64,000 bases of DNA from Blastocatellia bacterium (GTDB lineage: Bacteria; Acidobacteriota; Blastocatellia; Pyrinomonadales; Pyrinomonadaceae), in assembly GCA_003168335.1 (NCBI GenBank), contig PMSM01000002.1, positions 484,899 to 548,898 of the forward strand, written 5' to 3'. Below are positions 1,796 to 58,436 of the stretch, piece after piece. The notes under the pieces were generated by a model. That model made no database searches. It was not told the origin of the DNA and saw only the letters and a list, made by a program, of their open reading frames with translations. A program made the position numbers and the translations under genes. Within the stretch, counting starts at the first letter, position 1, and each line of letters starts with the position of its first letter.

Positions 1796-3547
1796 TCAAT
1801 GTCGGACGGTATTACTAACAGGTGGGCCGCACAGAGTGGGCGTTCGATTCGCCGCGCAATACCCCGGCCCGCGCAACACCTGTCCCGCCAGCGCCGGCGT
1901 CCGCTGCCCGTTATCTACTTCGATCTGTCCGTTAACGATTACAAAGTTGATCCCAACAGGATATTGATTCGGCTCTTCAAAGGTTGCGCGATCAATCACC
2001 GTCTGCGGATCAAAGATCGTGAGGTCCGCGAAATAGCCTTCACGAATCAAACCGCGATTCTTCAAACCAAGATTAGAAGCGGGCAAACCGGTCATCTTGT
2101 GAATCGCAAATTCCAGCGGCATCAGATGCTGGTCGCGCACGTAACGGCCGAGGATGCGCGGATAAGTGCCCCAACCGCGCGGATGCGACTTCGATCCAGC
2201 CAACGGACCGTCGGTCGCGCGCGCGCCGCTATCAGTGCAAATGCTGACAAACGGCGACTTCAAAGCGGCTTGCATGTCGCTTTCCTGCATCATGAAAAAG
2301 ATCGCGCCCGTCTGCCCGTGATCCGCGATGATGAAATCAAAGAGAGCATCAAGCGGATCTTTCTTTTCCCCGGCTGCGAATTGCCAAAGCCATTTGCCTT
2401 GCCAGCGTTCTAGATCGCGATTCACGACGGAGCCGATTAAGATGCCGCCCGGTCCACCACTCCCGAGATAAATGTTTTCCCAGGTCTTTGAGTCAGCGCT
2501 GATTTCCCACTTTAAACGTTTGCGCGTTTCGGCATCTTTCAAACGCGCAACCATTTTGTCCGTGCCACCTTCCAAAGCCCACGGCGGCAGGCAAGCGCTC
2601 AATGACGTACTGCCGGCAACGTATGGATAAACGTCGGCGGTGATCTTCAGCCCCTGTCGACGCGCGGCCGCGATGCGGCGGAGCATTTCCGGCATGCGGC
2701 CCCAGTTCTTCTTGTAAGCGGTCTTAAAGTGCCAGATCTCCGCGGGGATCCGCGCGCGGCGAGCGATCTCGAAAACCTCCTTCATCGAATCGTCAATTGC
2801 ATTGGCCTCGCTGCGCTGATGCGTGATGTAGATGCCGCCGTACTGCTGCGCGACTTTCGCCAGCTCGACGATTTCATCAGTCTTTGCGAAACGCGCGGGG
2901 ACATACTGCAAAGAAGTTGAGACACCCAGCGCGCCATCTTTCATCGCGTCAGCGACAAGCTTCTTCATTTGCGCTAACTCAGGCGGCGTAGGCGGACGAT
3001 CGTCGTAGCCAATGACATACTCGCGTACCTGCGTCGCGCCCACGAACGTGCCAAGATTGACGCCGGCGCCCTGTTTCCCCAGCCGCTGAAAATACTCAGC
3101 CAGCGTGCGCCAATCAACCGTCAGGTTGTAGCGCCGGTTGAAATCCTCCTGCTCTTTGAGAGTGCGATCGTTGATGGGCGCGATTGATTCACCTTCGCCG
3201 GTGATCTCTGTCGTTACCCCCATCATGACCTTGCTCATCGCGCGGGGATCGATCAGCACAAATTGCTCTGACTGCCCCAGCATGTCTATGAAGCCGGGCG
3301 CGACTACTTGTCCGCGGGCGTCGATGACGCGTTTGCTCGTCGCGCCGCTGAGATTGCCGACGCGGGCGATCCGTCCGCCTTTGATGGCGACATCGGCTGG
3401 GAAGGCGGGCCTTCCCGATCCATCGATGACGCGCCCGTGCCGAATGATGATGTCGTATTCGGCGGGTGCGGCGGTGCTGGTAGACGGCTGAGAAGACACG
3501 AGAAGCATGGTCGCCAGAGTTACCGCGAGTGAAATTCTGCGTATCAT
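1796..3547 (-). CDS. Secreted N-acyl-D-amino-acid deacylase (D-aminoacylase, amidohydrolase superfamily)
   Basis: Signal-peptide-like N-terminus, then YDIIIRHGRVIDGSG...DVAIKGGRIARVG...VAPGFIDMLGQSE, the D-aminoacylase beta-barrel/metal-site pattern. 583 aa. Confidence 0.75.
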   Translation of the reverse strand: MIRRISLAVTLATMLLVSSQPSTSTAAPAEYDIIIRHGRVIDGSGRPAFPADVAIKGGRIARVGNLSGATSKRVIDARGQVVAPGFIDMLGQSEQFVLIDPRAMSKVMMGVTTEITGEGESIAPINDRTLKEQEDFNRRYNLTVDWRTLAEYFQRLGKQGAGVNLGTFVGATQVREYVIGYDDRPPTPPELAQMKKLVADAMKDGALGVSTSLQYVPARFAKTDEIVELAKVAQQYGGIYITHQRSEANAIDDSMKEVFEIARRARIPAEIWHFKTAYKKNWGRMPEMLRRIAAARRQGLKITADVYPYVAGSTSLSACLPPWALEGGTDKMVARLKDAETRKRLKWEISADSKTWENIYLGSGGPGGILIGSVVNRDLERWQGKWLWQFAAGEKKDPLDALFDFIIADHGQTGAIFFMMQESDMQAALKSPFVSICTDSGARATDGPLAGSKSHPRGWGTYPRILGRYVRDQHLMPLEFAIHKMTGLPASNLGLKNRGLIREGYFADLTIFDPQTVIDRATFEEPNQYPVGINFVIVNGQIEVDNGQRTPALAGQVLRGPGYCAANRTPTLCGPPVSNTVRH

Positions 3548-5368: not shown

Positions 5369-5533
5369 GCGGCTTTGCCGCCCGAGGTGCGGAAAGCCTT
5401 TGGCTTTCCGTGAACGCCGGAAGTTGCGGAGGCTACGCCTCCCACACACTCGCGAGGCGTAGCCTCGCTGAATTCTCCAGGTAAGAGCATCGGAAAGGCA
5501 GAGCCCTTCCGCACATCAGGCGGCATAGCCGCC
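5369..5533. repeat. A-type composite palindromic element, copy 2
   Basis: Same architecture. Left arm GCGGCTTTGCCGCCCGAGGTGCGGAAAGCCTTTGGCTTTCCG, centre GAGGCTACGCCTC...GAGGCGTAGCCTC, right arm CGGAAAGGCAGAGCCCTTCCGCACATCAGGCGGCATAGCCGCC. Confidence 0.9.
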
Positions 5534-6954: not shown

Positions 6955-9933
6955 ATGGCCATAAGCCCTCAACAGATTGGAAAGCAAGACGCGCTGATCA
7001 AAGAGCTTCGCAAAATTGTCGGTCGCGAAAATGTTCTGGCTGAGCCCGAAGAGCTGCTCGTCTATGAATGCGATGGCTTGCCTCAGCACAAACATCCGCC
7101 CCGCGCCGTAGTCTTCCCGACCTCAACTGAAGAAACTTCGGAAGTCCTCAGCCTGCTCTCGGAAGAAGGGGTGAGTTTCGCGCCGCGTGGGGCGGGCACA
7201 GGACTTTCCGGTGGCGCGCTCGCAGTCGATCGTGGGGTGGTGATCGAGCTTGCCCGCATGCGCGCGATTTTGAAAATCGACACTGAAAATCGCCTGGCCG
7301 TAGTCCAGACTGGACTGGTGAACGCGCATCTTTCGCGCGCGGTCGCACCGTACGGCCTTTACTATGCGCCCGATCCTTCGAGCCAACCTTCGTGCACGAT
7401 TGGAGGGAACATCGCCGAGAACGCCGGCGGTATTCATTGCTTGAAATATGGCACCACAACTGATCACGTGGTCGGCGCTCGAGTGGTCCTGGCCGACGGT
7501 TCTGTCGTCGATCTCGGCGGAGGTTCGCCCGGCTATGATCTGCTCGGTGTCTTCGTGGGCTCGGAAGGGACGTTTGGGATCGCGACCGAGGCGACCGTGA
7601 AACTTTTGCCGGTTCCGCCGGCGGTGCGGACGCTACTGGCTGACTTTACTGATGTTGATGATGCCAGCCGCGCGGTCTCAGCAATTATTTCGGCGGGCAT
7701 GCTGCCGGCCGCGCTGGAAATGATGGACAACGCGATCATCCGCGCCGTCGAAGCCAGTATCTTCGCCGCCGGATTACCTGTAGATGCCCAGGCAGTCCTG
7801 CTCCTCGAGTTAGACGGCATCGAAGCCGGCATCGATGATGACGCGGCGCAGGCTGAAAGCATTCTGAGCCACCACGGCGCGCGTTCAGTGCGTCGCGCGA
7901 CGGATCCGAACGAGAGAAATAAACTTTGGGCCGCGCGCAAAGGAGCGTTCGGCGCCGTCGGTCGTTTAAGTCCCGACATCATGATTCAAGATGCGGTCGT
8001 GCCGCGCTCGCGTCTTCCCGAAGTCCTCGCTGAAACTTATCGCATCAGCGCGCACTACAACCTGCAACTGGCGAACGTGTTCCATGCTGGTGATGGCAAT
8101 CTGCATCCGCTGATCTGTTTTGACCTGCGTCGCGGTGACGATCTCGAACGGGTGCGGCAAGCCGGGCGCGAGATCATGGAAACCTGTGTGCGCGCCGGCG
8201 GTTCAATCACCGGAGAGCACGGTGTCGGCCTCGATAAGATCAGCTACCTGCCTTTGATTTTCAGCGATGATGACATGGACGCGATGCTGCAAGTGCGTGC
8301 CGCGTTCGATCCTTCGGGGCTGTGCAATCCCGGCAAGATTATTCCGTTGCCGCGTGGATGCGGCGAAGCACGGGCGGTGGCGACTCAACCAGTGTCGGAA
8401 CCGGGAGCGGACCGGGGTCCCCAAGCGGGCAGCCCGGTGGTGGATGCGACCGGGTCAAAGCTGGGAGCATCTCATCCGCAAAGGCGCGACAACTCGACCA
8501 GTTCGACAAGCTTAAGTTCGTCGGACGCCCCGCGTGACCGAACCGCACAGAAGCACGCTCTGATTTCCACCAAACTTAATGAAGCGAGGATTGCCCGCGA
8601 ATTCTCGCGCATCGTCGGCGACCAAAGCGTGCGTAGACTTTCAGATTCCATTGCGACTTCGCAAAGCACCGCGCCGGCTGCGGGGCGATCACTTGAACGA
8701 TTCCTTGAAGTAGCGCCGCAATCGACGGAAGCCGCTGCTCAAGTGATGCAACTGGCTATGAAGCAAGACCTGGCCGTGGTTCCGGCTGGGGCGGCTACCT
8801 GGATCGATGTCGGCAACCTTCTCAGTCGTTCGGATTTATTAGTTACGACGCGGCGCATGACCCGAGTGCTGAAGCACGAGCCGGCGGATCTGGTCGCCAC
8901 CGCGGAAGCCGGGTTGACACTCAACAGTTTTCAAGAGCACCTGGCGCAAGCGGGACAGTGGTTGCCGATTGATCCGCCTGATGATGCCAATGGTGGACGC
9001 GCCACCCTGGGCGGCGTGGTCGCTACCGGATTGGGCGGCCCCCACAGTTTCGGTTTTGGCTTGCCCAGGTCATTCGTGATTGGCATGAGGGTGGTGCTCT
9101 CCGATGGCCGCGCGATCAAAGCCGGAGGGAGTGTCGTCAAAAATGTTGCGGGCTATGATCTTTGTAAACTATTCACTGGAAGTTACGGGACGCTGGGCTT
9201 AATCACTGAGTTGACCTTCAAGCTGCGACCGCTGCCGGCCGAAAGCCGAACCGTCATGGCTTCGGGATCACTGGCGTCGCTGATCAACGCAGGCCGCAAG
9301 GTCTACAGTAAGTTCGCCCCGGTCGCCATTGAATTAATCTCCAGCCGCCTGGCGAAAGATTTGGAAATCGTAAACGAGCTTGAGACTGCCTTGATGATGC
9401 GATTTGTTGGATCGGCGCGGTCGGTTGTGGCGCAAACTGCACAGGCCCTCAAACTTTTCCGTGACGATGGTGTTCGGTGCGCAACGCTCGATGAGGAGTC
9501 TCAGCCGTGGAGCAAATTGAGCGCCGTGCCTTTGCAGTCTCACGACGATCTGAGGTGGCGGGTCGCTTTGCGACCTACCGATCTGGTTTCCTTTCTGAGC
9601 GACATAAGTGCCCTGGAAAATGATGAAGCGTCGCACTTAGGGCTGCGCTGGCATGCCGGGTTGGGCGATGGCCGCCTGCGCGCAATTGCTCGTGCTCCGG
9701 TGTATCATCGCGAAGCCGTGCGCGCCCTGGAACGTCTCCGGCAGAAAGCCGAAAGCCTCGGCGGCAGCCTGGTCGTTGAAAGCGCGCCAATCGAGATCAG
9801 GAATGAATTCGATGCCTGGGGCGATTTTGGTTCGGTGGCTGAGTTGATGCAGCGAATTAAGCTTGAGCTCGACCCACAGAATTTACTGTCGCCGGGGCGA
9901 TTTGGTCGCGGGGACGGAAGGACAATCAGGTAG
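6955..9933 (+). CDS. glcDE: Fused FAD-linked glycolate oxidase subunits GlcD (N-terminal) and GlcE (C-terminal)
   Basis: The N-terminal ~465 aa have the GlcD pattern (FAD-binding PCMH domain RGAGTGLSGGA, C-terminal GEHGVG...CNPGKIIP). A low-complexity linker of ~70 aa follows, then a second PCMH FAD-binding domain (VVPAGAATW...VKNVAGYDLCKLFTGSYGTLG) typical of GlcE. Confidence 0.85.
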   Translation: MAISPQQIGKQDALIKELRKIVGRENVLAEPEELLVYECDGLPQHKHPPRAVVFPTSTEETSEVLSLLSEEGVSFAPRGAGTGLSGGALAVDRGVVIELARMRAILKIDTENRLAVVQTGLVNAHLSRAVAPYGLYYAPDPSSQPSCTIGGNIAENAGGIHCLKYGTTTDHVVGARVVLADGSVVDLGGGSPGYDLLGVFVGSEGTFGIATEATVKLLPVPPAVRTLLADFTDVDDASRAVSAIISAGMLPAALEMMDNAIIRAVEASIFAAGLPVDAQAVLLLELDGIEAGIDDDAAQAESILSHHGARSVRRATDPNERNKLWAARKGAFGAVGRLSPDIMIQDAVVPRSRLPEVLAETYRISAHYNLQLANVFHAGDGNLHPLICFDLRRGDDLERVRQAGREIMETCVRAGGSITGEHGVGLDKISYLPLIFSDDDMDAMLQVRAAFDPSGLCNPGKIIPLPRGCGEARAVATQPVSEPGADRGPQAGSPVVDATGSKLGASHPQRRDNSTSSTSLSSSDAPRDRTAQKHALISTKLNEARIAREFSRIVGDQSVRRLSDSIATSQSTAPAAGRSLERFLEVAPQSTEAAAQVMQLAMKQDLAVVPAGAATWIDVGNLLSRSDLLVTTRRMTRVLKHEPADLVATAEAGLTLNSFQEHLAQAGQWLPIDPPDDANGGRATLGGVVATGLGGPHSFGFGLPRSFVIGMRVVLSDGRAIKAGGSVVKNVAGYDLCKLFTGSYGTLGLITELTFKLRPLPAESRTVMASGSLASLINAGRKVYSKFAPVAIELISSRLAKDLEIVNELETALMMRFVGSARSVVAQTAQALKLFRDDGVRCATLDEESQPWSKLSAVPLQSHDDLRWRVALRPTDLVSFLSDISALENDEASHLGLRWHAGLGDGRLRAIARAPVYHREAVRALERLRQKAESLGGSLVVESAPIEIRNEFDAWGDFGSVAELMQRIKLELDPQNLLSPGRFGRGDGRTIR

Positions 9934-10097
9934 CGGCTTCGTCGCCCCGATGTGCGGAAAGCCTATGGCTTTCCGGCAGTCATTACTAGAAGATTTCAGA
10001 GGCTACGTCTCTGAACGCGAGGCGTAGCCTCACGAGATAAGACAAGGGACGCGCGCCGGAAAGGCAGAGCCTTTCCGCACATCAGGCGGCAGAGCCG
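9933..10097. repeat. A-type composite palindromic element, copy 3
   Basis: Same architecture, lying between the glcDE stop and the ggt start. Confidence 0.9.
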
Positions 10098-12374: not shown

Positions 12375-13733
12375 ATGGCCTCGGCCCAACCATCCAGCCT
12401 CGCGACTGCTCTGGCATCTGAACAAGAAAAACTTCTCGCCTGCGTGCACTGCGGGCTGTGTCTCGAAGCGTGCCCGACTTACGTGGTTACCGGCGACGAG
12501 AACGACAGCCCGCGCGGACGTCTCTACCTGATGCGCGCCGTGGAAGAAGGACGGCTCGCGGTTGAGTCGGCGACCTTCGAAAATCACATCGATCGTTGTC
12601 TTGGCTGCCGCGCCTGCGAAGCTGCCTGTCCGGCCGGGGTTGAATATGGCCAACTGCTGGAAGCAGCCCGCGCCGAGATTACGCGATCGCAACCCAAGCC
12701 CGGCGGCATCCACGCGTTGCTGAAATTTGTTTTGCGGCACGTTTGGCTGAAGCCGAAGCGTTTGCGCGCTGCTTTCGCGCTGGCTCGCTTTGTGCGTGAT
12801 TCACGTTTGGCCAGGCTCTTACTGCGCAGCGGATTGGCGCGCGGGATCTCGTCCGAGTTTGAGTTCGCCTTAACCTTGCTGGACAGTTCATCATCAATCA
12901 TCGACAAGAATTACAGAGCCAGTAATGACCAAGCATTGCCGGCGCGCAGGATGCCCGCGCACCGCCCGCAAGATGCGGGCGCTCCGGTGGTCCTGCTCTT
13001 CAAAGCCTGCGTCACCGAGGGTTTGTTTCAGAGAGTCAACGCAGCCACCGCGCGTGTGCTCGAAGCAAACGGTTGCCAGGCGCAGGGGCCGTCCGGCCAG
13101 GTTTGTTGTGGCGCTTTGCATGCGCATGCCGGCGAGTTGGATGGCGCACGCACGTTAGCGCGACAGAATATCGATGCGTTTGGCGAAAGCGACACGCCCG
13201 TCATTACCAACGCTGGCGGCTGTGGCGCGATGCTCGCCTCCTACGGACATCTGCTCGCCGAAGATGAAAAATACGCCCAGCGGGCGCGGAACTTCAGCGC
13301 GCGGATTCGCGACATCGGCCAGCAACTCGAGACGGACGGGTTTCGTAATGGCGCGGCGATTGGAGTCGAGCGAACAACTTACGATGCTTCCTGTCACCTG
13401 CTGCACGGACAGCATGGCTCAGCGGCAGCTTTGCAAATGCTTTGGGCGATTCCGAATTTGAACTTCGTGCTCTTGAAAGACAGTGAAGTCTGTTGTGGAG
13501 GCGCCGGCGTTTACAACTTGCTTGAGCCGGAATTGTCAGAACAGGTGCTGGCAGAGAAGCTAAAGCGGATTGAAGACAGCGGCGCCACGGTCCTGGCCAC
13601 GGGTAACGCGGGGTGTCACATGCAGATTGCCGCCGGCGCGCGTTTGGCGGGCATGTCTTTGCGAGTTTGTCATCCGGTTGAACTGCTTGACGAATCGTAT
13701 CAGCGTGCCGGGTTATATGAATCAGAGAGGTGA
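12375..13733 (+). CDS. glcF: Glycolate oxidase iron-sulfur subunit
   Basis: Two ferredoxin-type clusters (CVHCGLCLEACPTY and CLGCRACEAACP) are followed by two CCG (Cys-rich) domains (VCCGA..., VCCGGAG...). Confidence 0.85.
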   Translation: MASAQPSSLATALASEQEKLLACVHCGLCLEACPTYVVTGDENDSPRGRLYLMRAVEEGRLAVESATFENHIDRCLGCRACEAACPAGVEYGQLLEAARAEITRSQPKPGGIHALLKFVLRHVWLKPKRLRAAFALARFVRDSRLARLLLRSGLARGISSEFEFALTLLDSSSSIIDKNYRASNDQALPARRMPAHRPQDAGAPVVLLFKACVTEGLFQRVNAATARVLEANGCQAQGPSGQVCCGALHAHAGELDGARTLARQNIDAFGESDTPVITNAGGCGAMLASYGHLLAEDEKYAQRARNFSARIRDIGQQLETDGFRNGAAIGVERTTYDASCHLLHGQHGSAAALQMLWAIPNLNFVLLKDSEVCCGGAGVYNLLEPELSEQVLAEKLKRIEDSGATVLATGNAGCHMQIAAGARLAGMSLRVCHPVELLDESYQRAGLYESER

Positions 13734-13736
13734 CGG

Positions 13737-14171
13737 ATGAATGAATCCCCGACCCAAAGGCGTCTGGCGATGGCCGGCGCGTTGCTCTTCTTCATTGGAA
13801 TGCTGTCCGGCTTGTGGGCGGGCGTGGCCCTGACCGGCAAAGTGAAAGTTGGCATTCCGCATTTGGCGCTGGCGGCGCATCTGAACGCGTTGCTCGGCGG
13901 GCTTTGGCTGCTGGCAGTAGCCTGGACCTTTCAGTTCCTGCATTATGGCGCAGCGGGCCTGCGCCGGTTGGCGTTCGCGGTTGCGGTTCCCGCCTGGGCC
14001 AACTGGCTCGTTACGCTGATTGCTTCTTTCCTGGGAGTCAGGGGACTCGAGTACACCGGTGACATGAAGAACAACGCGATCGCATTTGCGCTGCAGGCGT
14101 TTGTGGTCCTGCCGACCCTGGTGGCGTGCGGTTTTTGGGTGTGGGGCTTTCGCGCGCGCCGAGGCCGGTGA
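13737..14171 (+). CDS. Small integral membrane protein of unknown function
   Basis: 144 aa with four hydrophobic segments. It starts 4 nt after the glcF stop. No motif recognised. Confidence 0.45.
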   Translation: MNESPTQRRLAMAGALLFFIGMLSGLWAGVALTGKVKVGIPHLALAAHLNALLGGLWLLAVAWTFQFLHYGAAGLRRLAFAVAVPAWANWLVTLIASFLGVRGLEYTGDMKNNAIAFALQAFVVLPTLVACGFWVWGFRARRGR

Positions 14172-14177
14172 AGGGAA

Positions 14178-15401
14178 CTATTGAAACGCGACGTGACCCC
14201 CGACGATTGTCAGCCGCAGATTCCGAGCTTCATCCAGAGCCACCAGATCCGCGCGCTTCCCTTCCTCAATCGATCCGCAATCAACATCGATTCCCAGCAG
14301 GCGCGCAGGATTCAGTGAGGCCATGCGCGCTACGTCGGATTCAAAAATTCCGAGCGAGAGCATCATGCGGACCGCGTCCAGCATGGTGATAACTGAACCC
14401 GCAATGCTGCCGCGGGCGTTTTGAGTCCGGCCGTCTTTCACCACAATCTTCTCGTCCCAGATGTGATACTCGCCGTCGCCAAGCCCGGTGGGCGCAATGG
14501 CATCGCTGATCAAAGAAACTCGGTCCGCGGTCTTGCTGCGCAGAATTAACTTGAGTATGGAAGGGTCGACATGGATTCCGTCGGCGATCACGTCACAGGT
14601 GACCTGATCGTGAATCAGGCCCCAGCCCACCGGCCCAGGCGCGCGATGATGCAACGGCGCCATGGCATTCATGAAGTGGGTCATATGATGGGCGCCGGCC
14701 CGCAGTGCTTCGTCGAGAACGTCGACTGTGGCGCGCGTATGCCCGATTGAAATGATCCATCCGCGCCGGTGAAGTTCGTGGATCAGGGCAACGCCGCCCT
14801 CGATCTCCGGCGCGAGGGTCATCATGTGGATCGCGCTTTCGTGCTTGATTGTCGGGAGCGCATCAAGGTCGGCCGCATTTTGATAAGGGCGAAAGTGCTC
14901 GCGATGAAGCGCGCCGCATTGTTCGCTGTTAACAAACGGACCTTCATAGTGAACGCCAAGAACGCGCGCTGGTGGCACAGACTTCAGTCTGTGATCGCGA
15001 GCGCCGGAATCAGCACAGACTGAAGTCTGTGCCACCGCCTTTTCAATCGCGTGGATCGCTTGTTCGTATTGCTCAATCGTCGAGGGCACCAGCGTCGGCA
15101 ACCAGGCAGTGACCCCCTTACTTGCCAGAAACATTCCGACTCGGCCCAGGTCGTCCGCGTTCGCGGCCATCGTGTCGACACCGGCGGCGCCGTGAATGTG
15201 GAGGTCTATGAATCCGGGGAAGAGAGTGAGGCCGTCCAGATCGACTACGGCATCGGCCGCCGGCAACTGAGGTGTTTCCGAATCAAAAACTCGGACGATG
15301 TGACCTGCTTCGATCAGCACAGCGCCCTGCTCGATCACGCGATCGTGACCGATGATCCGCGCGCCGCGCAATAGAAGCGAGTTGGTCGAATCTGGTGCCA
15401 T
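14178..15401 (-). CDS. nagA: N-acetylglucosamine-6-phosphate deacetylase (carries an in-frame palindromic insertion)
   Basis: GFIDLHIHGAAGVD metal site, LPTL, LGVHYEGPF, SIGHT, THFMNAM, DGIHV and GSIAGS motifs of NagA. 407 aa. Confidence 0.9.
   Translation of the reverse strand: MAPDSTNSLLLRGARIIGHDRVIEQGAVLIEAGHIVRVFDSETPQLPAADAVVDLDGLTLFPGFIDLHIHGAAGVDTMAANADDLGRVGMFLASKGVTAWLPTLVPSTIEQYEQAIHAIEKAVAQTSVCADSGARDHRLKSVPPARVLGVHYEGPFVNSEQCGALHREHFRPYQNAADLDALPTIKHESAIHMMTLAPEIEGGVALIHELHRRGWIISIGHTRATVDVLDEALRAGAHHMTHFMNAMAPLHHRAPGPVGWGLIHDQVTCDVIADGIHVDPSILKLILRSKTADRVSLISDAIAPTGLGDGEYHIWDEKIVVKDGRTQNARGSIAGSVITMLDAVRMMLSLGIFESDVARMASLNPARLLGIDVDCGSIEEGKRADLVALDEARNLRLTIVGGHVAFQ
14971..15036. 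repeat. Perfect 66-bp nested palindrome inside the nagA coding sequence
   Basis: GGTGGCACAGACTTCAGTCTGTG (14971-14993) is the exact reverse complement of CACAGACTGAAGTCTGTGCCACC (15014-15036), with a 20-nt spacer. Each arm is itself a hairpin (CACAGACT-nn-AGTCTGTG). Confidence 0.95.
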
Positions 15402-15481
15402 GTTGTTGAGCTATTAAAACACGATCAGACCCCAAACGTACGAATGCCCGCAGCGTTTTCGCCACGGGCATCCGGTTAGGT

Positions 15482-15500
15482 CTAACGCTCAAAGCGTTAG
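15482..15500 (-). terminator. Hairpin immediately after the TonB-dependent receptor stop codon
   Basis: CTAACGCT-CAA-AGCGTTAG is a perfect 8-bp stem abutting the stop at 15501-15503. A second hairpin (GCCCG...CGGGC) follows at ~15445-15475. There is no clear U-tract. Confidence 0.35.
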
Positions 15501-18500
15501 CTAGAAGATGAACTTCGCCCCCAGTTGAATCGTGCGCGGGTCGCGCACGACGCTGACATTGCCGTACGTAGCAGACGTGACATTCACGATTATCGTCTGG
15601 AAGTTCGTGTGATTGAAAATGTTGAAGGCTTCCGCGCGAAGCTGCACCTGCAGCGATTCGCCAAAGCGAAAGTTCTTACTCATCGTGAAGTCAACACGCT
15701 GGGTTGGTGGGCCATTGATAACGCCACGACCTCCGTTGCCGATGACGTTGGTCACGCCGGTCGTAAGTACCGTGGGGTTGAGCTGGAAACAAGCGGTGTT
15801 GAAGTACTGCTGGAGCGTATGCGGTGCATTAGCGTTTGGATCGCACAGGACGTTCGGCCTCGCGCCGGCGACCAGGGCCGGGACGAATCCCAGGCCGGCC
15901 GCGTCGAAGGAGGAAGTTGCCGGCGTGAACGGTATGCCGCTGCGGTAGGCGAGGATGCCTGATGCTTGCCACCCGCCCAAAAGCTTGCCGGCAAACCCTT
16001 CCTGATTGCGGTAGAACGGCAGCTCATAGACGTAATTTATAGTCAGAACATGTCGCCGATCGAGTGTCGCCCTGCCATAGTCAGCCTTGTTGTTGTAAGA
16101 GTTCTGCGAAGCGGTCGAGCGATCCGTTTGATTGTCCGTCATGTTTCGCGACCACGTGTACGCGAGGCTGACCTGCGAAGAGCCGGTGAACCTCCGCTGC
16201 GCGCTCACCTGTAGGCTGTGATAATTCGAGTTGAACTGCGGCGTAATGATCGCAATCGATCGATAACCCCGGTACGGCCGGATTTGATCGAGGATCGCGG
16301 TGTTGGCGGTCGAAGTAAACGCAGCCCCGGGGTTCTGGCAGGGAATCGTTGGCGTAGTTGAAGCGCCCGCGGCGCAAAGCGTCGCCAGTGCCTTTCCCGC
16401 GGGAACTTCATTCAATTCGTAAGTGCCAATCAGATGTGTGCCCTTCGAACCGAAGTAGCCAGCGGTCACTACGGTCTTACCGTCTTTCCCGAACTGATGC
16501 TGCAGGTCCAGATTCCAATGCTGCATGTAGGGATCCTTCCACTCGGGTTGCACGGCCCGCACGCTCAGCGCGGTTAGCGCGGCTGCCGGACTGACAACAA
16601 TTCCGGTGGGAACGGGCAGATCAAGACGGGGTGTGGTTGCGGCCGTTCCCGATGGCAGAGCGCTCGCCGTAAATGTTTCCTGATAGGGCACGTTCTGACC
16701 AATATTCTGTTCGTACGTACCATTCAGAACTTGATCATAGTAAATGCCATAACCCATGCGAACCGACGAAGTGCCTTTGCCAAACGGATCCCAGGCAATG
16801 CCAAAACGCGGACCCAGATCGTTCTTGGGGGCCTTTACGACCTTATTCCCATAGGGCGAAATTGTTGGCGTACAGTTGTTCGGGCCAGTTTGATAGTTCT
16901 GCGCATTTACTGTAATGCCGTCGCAGAAATTGCCCGTACCAACCACGCGATTGCCGGCGCCCGTGACCAGCGGGGCCGTGGCGGGATTGAACAAGGCGGG
17001 ATCAAAATTTGACAGGCGGCCGTTTCTGTCCTCCGGCGAGCCGAAATATGAATAGCGCAGCCCATAGTAGACTGTGATATTGGGCCGTATCTTCCATTCA
17101 TCCTGGCCATAAAACTCGATGGTCTTCTGCCGCAAATCAGCCGTGTAATCAAAGTGCGCCTGAGTAAAAGTCACATTGCTTCCCATCAGGAAGTTTGCGA
17201 AATTCTGGAAGTTCGTACGGCGCGCAGAATTCGGCTCACCCACCGCAGCGTTTGGAGCCAGCACGCTGGTTTGCTGGGCGCTGTTGGCAGTCGTGTTGAG
17301 GAAACCGCTGAACGTGCCTTCGTTGCTTCCCGCCAGCGCGTTTTCGTTCTTGCGGTAGAGGGAATACTGCCCGCCGAATTTAAAAGCGTGCCGGCCTCTG
17401 GTCCAGGCAACGTCACTCGCGAAATTCGCTTTGTAGGAGAAGTTGTTGTAAGGGCCAAAGCTTTGCAACGCACTGAAGCCGTTTCCTGAGATAGTCGGAA
17501 CGCGATCGCGCGTGTTGGCATAAGCTAGGGGCGGCGTGATCGGTGAATTGGCTAACGCCAGGGTGCCAATGTTGCTGCTCAGAATCGCGCCGTAGCCATA
17601 AGTAAAGCGACCGACGATGACCAGATTTGAACTCGCGACATACGTTGACTGGAACGTGTGGGCTTTCCCTGGCGAATCAGTCGCCGTCGTGGAAACACCT
17701 GGCAATCCCGAGCCTGATGAAAATAATGAATTAACGTCCGTTGTCGGGATCTTGTCATGTTCATAGCGATAATACATCGACAACTTGTTGCTGAAGCTGT
17801 AGTCAAGCTTGAGAATCTCTTGGCGGAAATCCGCTTTACCCAGCGCGGGAAATAAAAGAGCGCGAGTGACCGGATCAGTGGGCAAAGGGAGCTGGTTGTA
17901 GATTGAATTTAGGTACTGTTGAGCGATCGGGTTGATCGCCACCTTAGACGATAACGGCTGGCCAGCCAGAAGGACGTTCGTGCACGGGACAGCTCCCGTC
18001 GTTAACGCGGTAAAGGCACTCACACAGACGTCCATTGGGAAAATTCCCTGGCGCATGTTCAGGTCAGGGACGGTTGAAGAGAGCGTGGGATAGCGAAGGT
18101 CGTGGCGCTGTTCTTCTGAAAAGAAGAAGAACGCTCGCTTGATTGTCTTGGTCGAAGCTCCACCCTCTGCAAGCCGCGGAAGGATGATAGGTCCGCCGAC
18201 GGTTCCACCAAAATTGTTGTACTTGAAGGGGGACCGGTTAGCTTTGCCGTTTGTGTCTCTGCCGAAAGCCGGGCTCGAGATAGTGTTTGATAAGAAATCG
18301 TTGGCGTTCAGTTTCTCACTCCGGTGGAATTCAAATATCGAGCCGTGAAAATGATCCCCTCCGGACTTTGTAACCACGTTGACTTGACCGCCGCCACTGC
18401 GTCCTGACTCCGCGAGGAACATTGACCGCAGGACAACAAACTCAGCAATCGAGTCCACGCTCGGATATGCCTGAATCGTGATGTTCGAGCCACGGTCGGT

Positions 18501-19130
18501 GATATCCGCACCATCGACGGTGTAAGTGTTTTGAGCGCTGCGCGCGCCGTTAACCGAGATATTAATCGTGTTGGCCTGACCGGTCGGATTGGTCGTTCCC
18601 ACATACACCTGATCGGACAGGTTGTCGGAGACGCCCGGGGCGAGCGTAACGAGCTGCACCCAGTTGCGATTGTTCAGCGAAAGCTCACGCGCCTGGTCGC
18701 CGCTGATAACGGTCGCGGCCGTCGGGGTTCTCAATTCAACCGCCAGGGGGTTTGCTTCAACTGTTACTACTTCGCTGATGTTACCCGGTTCGAGAGACAG
18801 CTCCAGGCCACGTTTTTGACCGACGTCCAGTTTAACCTTGGTTTCGATGTGCTTCTTGAAGTTCGGCGCTTCAACGGCTATGTCGTAAGAGCCGGACGGC
18901 AGGTCCGGGGCAGAGAAAGCGCCGCTGTCGTCGGTTGTCACCGTTCGAGCCACGACTTTCTTTTCAGCGTCAGTGATGGTCACGGTCGCACCGGCAACCG
19001 CGGCGCCGTTGGGATCTTTCACCCTCCCGTTGATCGAGCCGTTTATTTCCTGGGCCGAGGCGACGAAAACAAAACTAAAGAGAGCAAGTGCTGCAAACAC
19101 AACGCGCAGAAACTGATGGTGGTGTCTCAT
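15501..19130 (-). CDS. TonB-dependent outer-membrane receptor with N-terminal carboxypeptidase-regulatory-like domain (Oar-like)
   Basis: Signal peptide, GRVKDPNGAAVAGATVTITD (CarboxypepD_reg), a plug region and a very long beta-barrel ending in the aromatic C-terminal residue ...GAKFIF. AGAGGA precedes the ATG. Confidence 0.85.
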   Translation of the reverse strand: MRHHHQFLRVVFAALALFSFVFVASAQEINGSINGRVKDPNGAAVAGATVTITDAEKKVVARTVTTDDSGAFSAPDLPSGSYDIAVEAPNFKKHIETKVKLDVGQKRGLELSLEPGNISEVVTVEANPLAVELRTPTAATVISGDQARELSLNNRNWVQLVTLAPGVSDNLSDQVYVGTTNPTGQANTINISVNGARSAQNTYTVDGADITDRGSNITIQAYPSVDSIAEFVVLRSMFLAESGRSGGGQVNVVTKSGGDHFHGSIFEFHRSEKLNANDFLSNTISSPAFGRDTNGKANRSPFKYNNFGGTVGGPIILPRLAEGGASTKTIKRAFFFFSEEQRHDLRYPTLSSTVPDLNMRQGIFPMDVCVSAFTALTTGAVPCTNVLLAGQPLSSKVAINPIAQQYLNSIYNQLPLPTDPVTRALLFPALGKADFRQEILKLDYSFSNKLSMYYRYEHDKIPTTDVNSLFSSGSGLPGVSTTATDSPGKAHTFQSTYVASSNLVIVGRFTYGYGAILSSNIGTLALANSPITPPLAYANTRDRVPTISGNGFSALQSFGPYNNFSYKANFASDVAWTRGRHAFKFGGQYSLYRKNENALAGSNEGTFSGFLNTTANSAQQTSVLAPNAAVGEPNSARRTNFQNFANFLMGSNVTFTQAHFDYTADLRQKTIEFYGQDEWKIRPNITVYYGLRYSYFGSPEDRNGRLSNFDPALFNPATAPLVTGAGNRVVGTGNFCDGITVNAQNYQTGPNNCTPTISPYGNKVVKAPKNDLGPRFGIAWDPFGKGTSSVRMGYGIYYDQVLNGTYEQNIGQNVPYQETFTASALPSGTAATTPRLDLPVPTGIVVSPAAALTALSVRAVQPEWKDPYMQHWNLDLQHQFGKDGKTVVTAGYFGSKGTHLIGTYELNEVPAGKALATLCAAGASTTPTIPCQNPGAAFTSTANTAILDQIRPYRGYRSIAIITPQFNSNYHSLQVSAQRRFTGSSQVSLAYTWSRNMTDNQTDRSTASQNSYNNKADYGRATLDRRHVLTINYVYELPFYRNQEGFAGKLLGGWQASGILAYRSGIPFTPATSSFDAAGLGFVPALVAGARPNVLCDPNANAPHTLQQYFNTACFQLNPTVLTTGVTNVIGNGGRGVINGPPTQRVDFTMSKNFRFGESLQVQLRAEAFNIFNHTNFQTIIVNVTSATYGNVSVVRDPRTIQLGAKFIF

Positions 19131-38716: not shown

Positions 38717-38784
38717 GATCTTGATGTCCGCTGTTGGGCTGGGCCAGTTTTGCCAAGACCCTTCAACGTGGGCGTCCGGCGTTT

Positions 38785-38843
38785 AGAGTGCCAACTTTAG
38801 TTGGGTCTTTGCCGCGAAAAAGCCCAACTAAAGTTGGTACTCT
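38785..38843. repeat. 21-bp-arm inverted repeat between the ABC substrate-binding and ATPase genes
   Basis: AGAGTGCCAACTTTAGTTGGG ... CCCAACTAAAGTTGGTACTCT, with one mismatch and a 17-nt spacer. Confidence 0.85.
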
Positions 38844-38891
38844 GTACACCGCTAGCGTTGCTCGTGCAATCTACTGCCCACTGCTTACTGC

Positions 38892-40440: not shown

Positions 40441-40499
40441 GTTCAGCAGCGAGACTGTGCAAGATAGACGAGCGGCAGAAACGGCGACTCATGCTTGGG

Positions 40500-40565
40500 T
40501 CAGAAGCCCGACCGTGAGGGAGGGCTTGTCGATGGATGGGCCCTCCCTCACGGTCGGGCTTCTGA
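40500..40565. repeat. Perfect 26-bp-arm inverted repeat (GCCCGACCGTGAGGGAGGGC unit)
   Basis: TCAGAAGCCCGACCGTGAGGGAGGGC (40500-40525) and its exact reverse complement (40540-40565). A half copy sits at 53381-53401. Confidence 0.95.
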
Positions 40566-40708
40566 CAACTGATTGTCGCCAATTTGTGCCGGGCCCATAA
40601 TACTATGAACGATGAACGGGGTTCTAACAGAGACGCATACCCACATCGCCTCGCCACCTAACCGTTCGCGTTCCAGGATCTTGATCTGAGATCTGAAACT
40701 GGAGATGT

Positions 40709-49962: not shown

Positions 49963-50127
49963 CGGCTATGCCGCCTGATGTGCGGAAGGCCTCCGGCCTT
50001 CCGGAATGCTATCTTGATTCACTTTGGGGCTGCGCCCCCCGTTCTACGAGGCGTAGCCTCGCATGAATAGTAGAAGTAAGTCTTGCGGAAAGGCAGAGCC
50101 TTTCCGCACATCAGGCGGCAAAGCCGC
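49963..50127. repeat. A-type composite palindromic element, copy 4
   Basis: Same architecture. The left arm stem is CGGAAGGCC/GGCCTTCCG, and the centre is partly degenerate (GGGGCTGCGCCCC...GAGGCGTAGCCTC). Confidence 0.85.
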
Positions 50128-51362: not shown

Positions 51363-51499
51363 GATCGAAGTTGCGTCAATATACAACTTTGCTGGCATTT
51401 GGTCAGCAATCGTGTAAACTGGCCGCTCTTTTTGGAGTGCGTGGGGCGCAGCGGCGCCCAGGTCCGACAAACTTTAGGAAACTCTGATCAAGTACTTTC

Positions 51500-51682
51500 G
51501 ACGCGTAGCGTCGGTATGAATTTAGCCCGGCCTTTCAAGGCCGGGAAGAGGCAACGAGGTGTTCGCGTCGCGTAGCGACGCCTGAAACCAAGGGATTCAA
51601 CCGTCGCTACGCGACGAGAACAGAGACTAACCTGATCCCGGCGTTGAAACGCCGGGCTAAGTTCATGCGGACGCTATGCGTC
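51500..51682. repeat. ~183-bp nested palindromic element between the divergent ATP-grasp and CoA-ligase genes
   Basis: The outer arm GACGCGTAGCGTCGGTATGAATTTAGCCCGGCCTTTCAAGGCCGGG is mirrored by CCCGGCGTTGAAACGCCGGGCTAAGTTCATGCGGACGCTATGCGTC. The inner pair is CGTCGCGTAGCGACG / CGTCGCTACGCGACG. Confidence 0.9.
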
Positions 51683-51806
51683 CAAGACACTTAGTCAGAG
51701 GTTCCTTTAGTTTGTCATTGAGTTCCGTGGGCGAATGTTCCATCGAGAGAGATCGACACACTGAAGTTTGTCGGACAACAATGCCGCCGCACTCCAAATT
51801 CGACCT

Positions 51807-53806: not shown

Positions 53807-53822
53807 GAGGCTCCATTCTGCT

Positions 53823-53950
53823 GGGAGCGCGGACGTCCCGTCCGCACCGCGCCGCAGGCGCGCATGTTTTTTCGCTAACATGTAAGAGGTTAATAACCAT
53901 CATCATTTTTCGCGCTTCGCGCTCAGTGCGGACGAGACCTCCGCGCTCCC
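53823..53950. repeat. C-type composite palindromic element, copy 3
   Basis: GGGAGCGCGGACGTCCCGTCCGCAC + GCGCC-GCA-GGCGC ... GCGC-TTC-GCGC + GTGCGGACGAGACCTCCGCGCTCCC (the inverted arm). Confidence 0.85.
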
Positions 53951-54076
53951 AGCAAGGCGATGCTCGGTCCAACGATGTGGAATGTTCCATTACCGGGATT
54001 AGTTGAGTCTTGACGCGCTTTGCCCGGCACTCTAATCTCAACTTTTCCGCAATCACTCGAAGAAGGTTCTATTTCA

Positions 54077-57089: not shown

Positions 57090-57252
57090 GCGGCTCTGCC
57101 GCTCGATGTGCGGTAAGGCTGCGCCTTACCGGCACAGTCAACTTTGAATCTCTCTCGTTGCTTCGAGGCTGCGCCTCGAAGCAACGGAAACAAAGAGAGG
57201 CGAGCCAAGCCGGAAAGGCATAGCCTTTCCGCACATCAGGCGGCGAAGCCGC
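57090..57252. repeat. A-type composite palindromic element, copy 5
   Basis: Same architecture. The left stem is CGGTAAGGC/GCCTTACCG, and the centre is a single extended hairpin GCTTCGAGGC-TGC-GCCTCGAAGC. Confidence 0.9.
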
Positions 57253-58330: not shown

Positions 58331-58436
58331 GGGAACGCGGGCGCCTCGCCCGCACCAGCGAGGCGCAGCCTCGCTGAATTAGTAAAAGCAACTCCGGAAA
58401 GGCATAGCCTTTCCGCACATCGAGCGGCAGAGCCGC
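58331..58436. repeat. Hybrid element: C-type arm + B hairpin + A-type arm
   Basis: GGGAACGCGGGCGCCTCGCCCGCAC (C-type with a compensated stem), then CAGCGAGGC-GCA-GCCTCGCTG, then CCGGAAAGGCATAGCCTTTCCGCACATCGAGCGGCAGAGCCGC. It ends 8 nt before the PhyH start. Confidence 0.8.

Follow-up and report, generated by a model that had tools for sequence, protein, structure and literature searches.

How does a perfect 66-bp palindrome come to be translated, in frame, as part of a metabolic enzyme? The question is raised by positions 14971-15036 of a 64,000-nucleotide stretch of Acidobacteriota DNA (Blastocatellia bacterium, assembly GCA_003168335.1, contig PMSM01000002.1, positions 484,899 to 548,898 of the forward strand; hereafter the window), where such a palindrome lies within nagA, the gene for N-acetylglucosamine-6-phosphate deacetylase. 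We conclude that the palindrome is a REPIN, an inverted doublet of a GTGG-headed repetitive extragenic palindrome (REP) of the kind associated with REP-associated tyrosine transposases (RAYTs). We further propose, at a probability of about 0.8, that this RAYT-type REPIN inserted in frame in a permissive loop of nagA and has been inherited since. The gene and the parts of the element are as follows.

14178..15401, minus strand: nagA (N-acetylglucosamine-6-phosphate deacetylase), an intact open reading frame (ORF) of 407 aa that holds the palindrome
14971..15036, no strand: REPIN, an inverted REP doublet with heads outward; 66 bp, or 22 codons, V123-P144 of NagA
14972..14995, plus strand: REP unit 1, with head GTGG at 14972-14975, stem-loop CACAGACT-TC-AGTCTGTG at 14976-14993 and tail AT; the mRNA codes HRLKSVP(P)
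14994..15013, no strand: inter-unit spacer of 20 nt, coding (C)ADSGARD; sequence and length vary among orthologues in the codon alignment
15012..15035, minus strand: REP unit 2, in the opposite orientation, with head GTGG at 15035-15032, an identical stem-loop and tail CT; codes VAQTSVC

The nested, in-frame palindrome described in a first-pass annotation of this DNA was recovered in full. A repeat finder returned two 23-nt inverted-repeat arms (14971-14993 and 15014-15036), complementary at 23/23 positions and separated by 20 nt for a total of 66 bp, and the plus strand reads GGTGGCACAGACTTCAGTCTGTG-ATCGCGAGCGCCGGAATCAG-CACAGACTGAAGTCTGTGCCACC. Nested within the arms are mini-hairpins of 8-9 bp (14976-14983/14986-14993 and 15013-15021/15024-15032) of the form CACAGACT-nn-AGTCTGTG, and the outermost G/C pair, 14971/15036, falls beyond the REP repeat consensus. 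Both arms carry the GT[AG]G head and short stem-loop of a REP, and together they show the REPIN arrangement of inverted REPs around a short spacer, forming one long hairpin. The tail of unit 2 is CT in the window and AT in the closest relative. Folding of a 106-nt sense RNA around the palindrome gave -56.3 kcal/mol (z = -6.3); the 66-nt DNA strands gave -27 to -28 kcal/mol (z about -8.5), and the mini-hairpin of unit 1 as DNA gave -5.7 to -8.1 kcal/mol. Inspection of the sequence shows no stop codon in five of the REP unit's six reading frames. Neither the 23-mer nor its reverse complement has a further match in the 64-kb window at up to 3 mismatches, and 0/100 shuffles matched.

Several other identities for the palindrome were considered and rejected. 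No flanking direct repeat or target-site duplication is visible where the element meets its flanks, GAAAAGGCG and CAGCGCGC, and no terminal inverted repeats derived from an insertion sequence (IS) are visible at the palindrome, whose arms are REP hairpins and not IS ends. Identity as a MITE (miniature inverted-repeat transposable element), with IS-like terminal inverted repeats and a target-site duplication, was therefore set aside. A promoter and terminator scan found no signal at the palindrome and no terminator-like site on either strand, and an Rfam scan of the site returned only sub-threshold matches to generic miRNA hairpin models, so that an intrinsic terminator and a known RNA family were also rejected. 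Finally, a frameshift site was rejected as well: GAAAAG upstream of the hairpin does not form a slippery heptamer, nor do orthologues conserve it.

The host gene appears to be functional. The nagA ORF runs through the palindrome in frame (VAQTSVCADSGARDHRLKSVPP; wider translation AIEKAVAQTSVCADSGARDHRLKSVPPARVLGVHYEGPF) and matches the TIGR00221 nagA model over its full length at 298 bits, against a curated cut-off of 225.65; PDB structures of NagA are matched down to E = 4e-60. Residues H68, H70, E153, H221, H242, D274 and H277 are invariant in 57 NagA orthologues, and the metal-binding and catalytic set of NagA (HxH, HxEGP, two more His and an Asp) is wholly invariant among orthologues. No second nagA was found in the 64-kb window. 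Divergence across the gene is concentrated at third codon positions, which, together with an amino-sugar recycling neighbourhood, fits a working nagA gene. Within the window, nagA lies downstream of a 1209-residue CarboxypepD_reg/OMP beta-barrel receptor (window 12375-19130), and in one relative, L201 (L numbers are our handles for loci), it lies near genes for GH3, NamZ and an SSF transporter. Taken together, the GH3 enzyme, NamZ, the transporter and the outer-membrane receptor look like an amino-sugar or N-acetylmuramic acid (MurNAc) recycling/scavenging cluster.

The element sits in the one loop of NagA that varies in length. Residues 120-149 are the sole internal site with indels of at least 3 residues among 120 NagA orthologues, and the segment from PT to EGP spans 38 to 101 residues among orthologues. 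This segment has 54 residues here and 38-43 in insert-free orthologues, the nearest of which have 38-39. The first-pass annotation had taken the E. coli segment to be shorter by roughly the size of the whole element; the excess proved smaller than 22 residues, with a net gain of 15-16 over the nearest insert-free orthologues and of 12-17 over solved NagA structures. The extra residues align to a gap in those structures, just before the strand that carries HxEGP. An AlphaFold2 model built with 57 orthologues was poor (mean predicted local distance difference test score 58; best PDB matches NagA structures at a template-modelling score of about 0.4), and it was thus used for local secondary structure alone, where residues 109-127 form a confident helix, 128-141 a loop of low confidence and 149-153 a strand. 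By the established architecture of (beta/alpha)8 amidohydrolases, loops that lead from a helix to a strand are found on the face away from the active site. The alignment gaps and the length variation suggest that the loop is surface-exposed, and its natural length variation indicates that it tolerates inserts.

A REP should belong to a dispersed family, and the family was found in related genomes. The pattern GGCACAGACTNNAGTCTGTG was scanned against one genome per bacterial and archaeal species and was found in at least 120 places; among the matches listed, nearly all were in metagenome-assembled genomes (MAGs) of Acidobacteriota, often several per MAG, with hosts in Pyrinomonadaceae/Blastocatellia, Bryobacterales, Terriglobia and Acidoferrum. 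Some copies stand alone and others form inverted doublets. Profiling of 176 units gave the consensus R-GTGG-CACAGACT-TY-AGTCTGTG-ATT, in which G at -4 and T at -3, two positions absent from the search pattern, are conserved at 97% and 94%. Among close pairs, 36/40 are in +/- orientation with heads outward and 13-77 nt between hairpin cores, and the nagA doublet, with a gap of 20 nt between cores, has the typical geometry of the family. The units are dispersed in multiple copies in related genomes, and the nagA copy is the sole one in the 64-kb window. At least two MAGs with a type A nagA, as we call the form with this palindrome, appear to carry further copies: JBGPWS01, where L055 is the nagA copy and L112 another family copy, and, putatively, the OBJ2 MAG JBGQGG01, with family copies at L083 and L090; near-identical assemblies show the nagA tentatively assigned to this MAG, and there it holds a perfect type A insert. 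One further match, L053 (NZ_JBAUYR010000059.1, a Candidatus Binatus MAG) at 7627-7646, is the sole one outside the Acidobacteriota among the 80 locus titles listed; it carries the full GTGG head and may be due to chance, to a binning error or to horizontal transfer.

The family is predominantly extragenic and avoids coding sequence, with only 10/158 units in long stop-free stretches compared with 348/600 random positions in the same loci. Two of these ten, at L037 and L093, precede what are probably the true start codons, and two more, at L076 and L117, lie in spurious GC-rich ORFs. The 22-mer is nevertheless read in frame in other real genes, confirmed by Pfam, at four loci. L013:2-2755 and L034:2310-6374 encode AddA/UvrD-like helicase-nucleases and have one insertion site common to both orthologues; L031:734-3106 (minus) encodes a xanthine-dehydrogenase-like Mo subunit with the REP between MoCoBD_1 and MoCoBD_2; and in L043:6074-6841 the REP lies in the linker of a MoaD-MoaE fusion.

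Additionally, the family is physically linked to RAYT genes. An E. coli RAYT sequence used as tblastn bait gave one weak match, in L085 from a Blastocatellia MAG. The 82-residue fragment there matches the C-terminal half of the NCBIfam model NF047646 (REP-associated tyrosine transposase) at E = 1e-11 and also PDB 4er8, TnpArep; a Pfam scan of the fragment did not recognise it, and NCBI names it a REP-associated tyrosine transposase and its homologues carry PF01797. The TAG stop of this ORF overlaps the TAGTGG head of a REP doublet. Full-length homologues were found on two long metagenome contigs, in each of which a PF01797 gene lies between inverted 22-mers with 0-1 mismatch, at 2743(+) and 3481(-) in L203 and at 2722(+) and 3473(-) in L204. 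This is the REP/RAYT arrangement described in PMC2817692, PMC3733652 and PMC3116915. Since the 22-mers flank RAYT genes and form an inverted doublet in nagA, the nagA palindrome has the defining anatomy of a REPIN. In the two REPtrons (L203:2743-3502 and L204:2722-3494), the RAYT is called from a GTG at 3001, and a typical N-terminal motif, YHRNLPHWHPPG in L203 with its counterpart YHRNLPHWHPPGR in L204, lies about 150 nt upstream of the called start; the gene may be longer than called, or interrupted.

The insertion is not recent in this genome, nor are the residues peculiar to it. The closest NagA proteins in a large protein collection have the same length as that of the window, and AVAQTSVC-(5-9 residues)-DHRLKSVP(L/P) is present in dozens of NagA orthologues at 70-97% aa identity; other clades are without it. 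For DNA we used 80 metagenome loci, one genome locus and four look-ups. A relative whose NagA is 97% identical carries the same palindrome, with 25-nt arms, in each of two independent assemblies (a 548-kb JGI contig and the Logan assembly of SRR12354356), and over ten other orthologous contigs have it as well. Junctions of the type A insert are identical throughout and its spacers are related, and the same junctions were found in orthologues down to about 75% DNA identity.

Within this series, the arms changed far less than the gene around them in some lineages. In the L123-L128 lineage, only 2/46 arm positions differ from the window, both of them outermost bases, and 14/14 wobble sites in the arms are identical, whereas the rest of the gene has diverged by 26% and its third codon positions by 47%; the spacer has diverged in this lineage. 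The L205 lineage (76% DNA identity) has two perfect units and a spacer that matches the window at 17/20 bases. Alongside the catalytic HYEGPF motif, arm 2 belongs to the five 23-nt windows of nagA with the highest conservation. Decayed arms were found in L121, L131, L132, L134, L154 and L173, with substitutions that mostly break pairing. A search for compensatory arm changes yielded one possible pair in L121 and three changes giving G-U pairs in L129/L130; the rest break pairing, and the arms thus provide no covariation support for a conserved RNA structure. The first-pass annotation had held that the same peptide in orthologues with non-palindromic DNA would speak against an inserted element. 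Such orthologues do exist, in L121, L132 and L134; they carry decayed copies of the same element, and the REP origin is therefore not refuted.

Two of these loci show additional features. L121:4001-5221 is the closest metagenome contig, with about 4% DNA divergence in nagA, and about 36 of its roughly 60 differences fall in nt 300-480 of the coding sequence, around the element, in what looks like a recombination patch or a local mutation burst. In the nagA of L131 (locus positions about 490-560), both arms share a G-to-A change, CACAGACT to CACAAACT, which breaks pairing of the long hairpin and could reflect conversion between arms acting as direct repeats.

Because the conserved block is the REP unit and stays at the family consensus without covariation, the pattern speaks for a REP sequence that is itself constrained or homogenised, which we consider the most likely cause of arm conservation. 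Recognition by a RAYT or by a host REP-binding factor, or conversion from other copies, may drive it. A generic RNA helix under selection is a poorer match to the pattern.

The same loop holds other palindromes in relatives, and these resemble two further REPIN families of the window.

38777..38851, no strand: context REPIN of a different family (GTTTAGAGTGCCAACTTTAGTTGG), outside long ORFs
53819..53954, no strand: context REPIN of a third family (CTGGGAGCGCGGACGTCCCGTCCGC), intergenic; five units of this family in the window

Type B nagA inserts, which give a segment of 62-70 residues in L136 and L161, align to 38777-38851 over 79 nt, spacer included. Types C (single units) and D (doublets) align to 53819-53954, over 43-54 nt at about 90% identity for L135 and L149 and over 25 nt for L157. 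L136 has a degenerate type A arm ahead of its type B element, and short forms of the loop with the peptide GSLRSQ look like relics of a type D unit. In a rough neighbour-joining tree of NagA, types A and C are interleaved. The nagA loop has thus acquired or swapped REPINs from at least three families, which may be because it is the sole tolerant site in the protein or because an existing REP attracts further insertions.

From these observations we propose the following history. Two inverted copies of a 22-24-nt GTGG REP would form a non-autonomous element that is mobilised as single-stranded hairpin DNA by a RAYT, a Y1/HUH tyrosine transposase; this transposition mechanism is presumed for the nagA copy. 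The REPIN would have entered nagA in an ancestor of a Pyrinomonadaceae/Blastocatellia clade, in the loop that joins a helix to the beta-strand bearing the HxEGP metal-binding motif. With five of six frames of the unit stop-free, a copy in frame may have survived, and the enzyme would tolerate the extra, probably disordered peptide of about 16 residues, so that the gene stayed functional. Vertical inheritance with some recombination between alleles may account for the series since then.

Several results weigh against this proposal. The net gain of 15-16 codons, and not 22, means that a clean insertion requires the loss of 5-6 ancestral loop codons. The interleaving of types A and C and the L121 patch indicate recombination, which blurs a single ancient insertion. 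A tolerated selfish relic should decay near the synonymous rate, as the arms of L121, L131, L132, L134 and L173 do and others do not. A search for a RAYT in the 64-kb window found none, and no further family copy (at up to 4 mismatches in 22) was found in the window or in about 450 kb of the nagA neighbourhoods of relatives; this lack of a donor also argues against homogenisation by conversion, although at least two MAGs appear to combine a type A nagA with other copies of the family, as noted above.

The stasis of the arms raises the question of whether the REPIN has been domesticated, with its hairpin in the nagA mRNA or DNA kept for expression control (pausing, processing or stability) or for recombination at the loop. 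We think this improbable. Arm conservation far below the synonymous rate in several lineages is what it predicts, as is a very stable sense RNA hairpin (-54 to -56 kcal/mol), and it gains from the absence of a nearby conversion donor and from the repeated presence in this loop of other REPIN families' hairpins, at -56 to -125 kcal/mol. E. coli REPs near stop codons can reportedly stall ribosomes. Domestication does not, however, account for changed arms that mostly lose pairing, for the many orthologues that keep an intact nagA with decayed arms or no insert, or for a conserved block that is the exact family consensus bounded by the REP unit and not just a helix; nor is there a slippery site, a promoter or terminator signal or an Rfam family match at the site. 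A related and equally doubtful proposal is that the nagA loop is a long-lived landing pad whose hairpin is under nucleic-acid selection, as a cis-acting element or as a RAYT-dependent recombination site that shuffles alleles. If true, it would explain consensus arms through about 25% DNA divergence, occupancy by three families and mosaic alleles. Selection on the peptide, with the palindrome incidental, is very improbable. VAQTSVC and HRLKSVP are conserved in many orthologues, yet the conservation of every arm wobble site in the L123 lineage, together with the unrelated peptides, or lack of any segment, in other clades, does not fit amino-acid selection, and intergenic DNA holds many copies of the 22-mer, which is also translated in different frames in other proteins.

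A further possibility is that the loop is an insertion hotspot, with REPs targeted to it, for example to an existing REP hairpin, in recurrent independent insertions. We regard this as unlikely. The presence of types A, B and C/D in one loop among relatives, the nested appearance of L136, the interleaved tree and a report that REPs serve as targets of other insertions (PMC3733652) are all consistent with it. The type A junctions, however, are identical and the spacers recognisably homologous across lineages, as expected from one origin; random insertion combined with purifying selection at the only indel-tolerant site would give the same pattern, and allelic recombination, as in the L121 patch, can also interleave types. 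Assembly errors can create perfect palindromes, and we also considered an artefact or chimera, or a nagA pseudogene. Such an origin has next to no probability: it is excluded by the independent assemblies and many orthologous contigs that carry the palindrome, and by an intact ORF above the equivalog cut-off with catalytic residues kept and divergence at third positions. Insertion of a RAYT-type REPIN followed by inheritance thus remains our preferred reading. The first-pass view of a REP/MITE-like element in a variable NagA loop holds as to REP, on the strength of the dispersed extragenic family, the flanking of RAYT genes and the sole internal indel site.

The window contains further palindromic repeats. 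The first-pass annotation had taken the nagA element to be of the same kind as the palindromes of the intergenic spacers, which is correct for the architecture; the sequence families are others, and no second copy of the nagA family is present in the window. By far the commonest family has the core (GTG)CGGAAAGGC-nnn-GCCTTTCCG. It numbers 13 units in the 64-kb window, most of them paired in doublets roughly 100 nt apart and all outside long ORFs, and is probably another REPIN family. Its sites, together with two further repeats, are listed here.

1630-1795, 5387-5520, 9946-10086, 49963-50126, 57108-57240 and 58392-58420: sites of the CGGAAAGGC-nnn-GCCTTTCCG family
40499-40566: inverted repeat of 27 nt (GTCAGAAGCCCGACCGTGAGGGAGGGC), perfect and with 14 nt between its arms, outside long ORFs; it exceeds the nagA arms in length and shows no relation to the other families
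51466-51716: imperfect palindrome with 124-nt arms, 77% complementary and 3 nt apart, outside long ORFs

Our results document a RAYT-associated REP/REPIN family in the Acidobacteriota, with its 18-nt core in Blastocatellia/Pyrinomonadaceae, Bryobacterales, Terriglobia and Acidoferrum assemblies, and provide a traceable case of a REPIN translated within a housekeeping enzyme. The perfect, decayed, replaced and absent copies in the nagA loop form a natural series on how REPs are maintained, whether by selection, RAYT activity or gene conversion, and could reveal how proteins gain peptide segments from selfish palindromes. Annotators would do well not to mistake such inserts for assembly errors or pseudogenes. 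Strong hairpins may also affect the polymerase chain reaction, sequencing and heterologous expression of nagA genes that bear the insert.

The element has clear counterparts among known systems. Di Nocera, De Gregorio and Rocco 2013 (BMC Genomics 14:522, PMC3733652) described GT[AG]G-headed REPs with a 6-9-bp stem, including a GTGG variant in Opitutus terrae, which occur as single units and inverted dimers, mostly extragenic, and flank RAYT genes. A minority of those REPs are contained entirely within ORFs and read in frame, and over half of these are dimers coding 20-30 residues; genes for UvrD/RecBCD-type helicases are frequent hosts, and the REP head can supply a TAG stop. The family described here is similar in its GTGG head, its RAYT link, its helicase hosts (L013, L034) and its head-supplied TAG (L085). 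It differs in that the nagA element is found in another phylum and belongs to another sequence family; the available supplements of PMC3733652 mention no nagA and no REP family from Acidobacteriota. An orthologous series with near-unchanged arms through about 25% divergence and a loop with several families were likewise not found in PMC3733652.

Similarly, the REPINs that Bertels and Rainey 2011 (PMC3116915) described, which form extragenic populations in Pseudomonas and enterobacteria, consist of two inverted REPs with a short spacer that form one long hairpin, and their RAYT is flanked by the same REP, as here. Vertical persistence over long times is a further likeness, as abstracts on REPINs describe it. 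In contrast to the REPINs of PMC3116915, the nagA copy is translated. MITEs are also small and non-autonomous, have inverted ends and can sit in frame in genes, but each nagA arm is itself a GTGG-headed hairpin, the signature of a REP. The Rickettsia palindromic elements (Ogata et al. 2000, as related in PMC3733652) are in-frame palindromes in genes that remain functional. By that second-hand account, the likeness, an in-frame palindrome that adds a peptide to a working gene, is one of behaviour only; RPE-1 is described there as longer than REPs and comes from an obligate intracellular alphaproteobacterium, and a relationship in sequence is not expected. Furthermore, unlike for the Rickettsia elements, a cognate RAYT is identifiable for the nagA REP family. 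In-frame REP dimers were reported in PMC3733652 and related there to the Rickettsia elements, and the kind of insertion seen in nagA is thus already known. What the nagA case adds is the host phylum, a traceable orthologous series with conserved arms, and a single loop occupied by several families.

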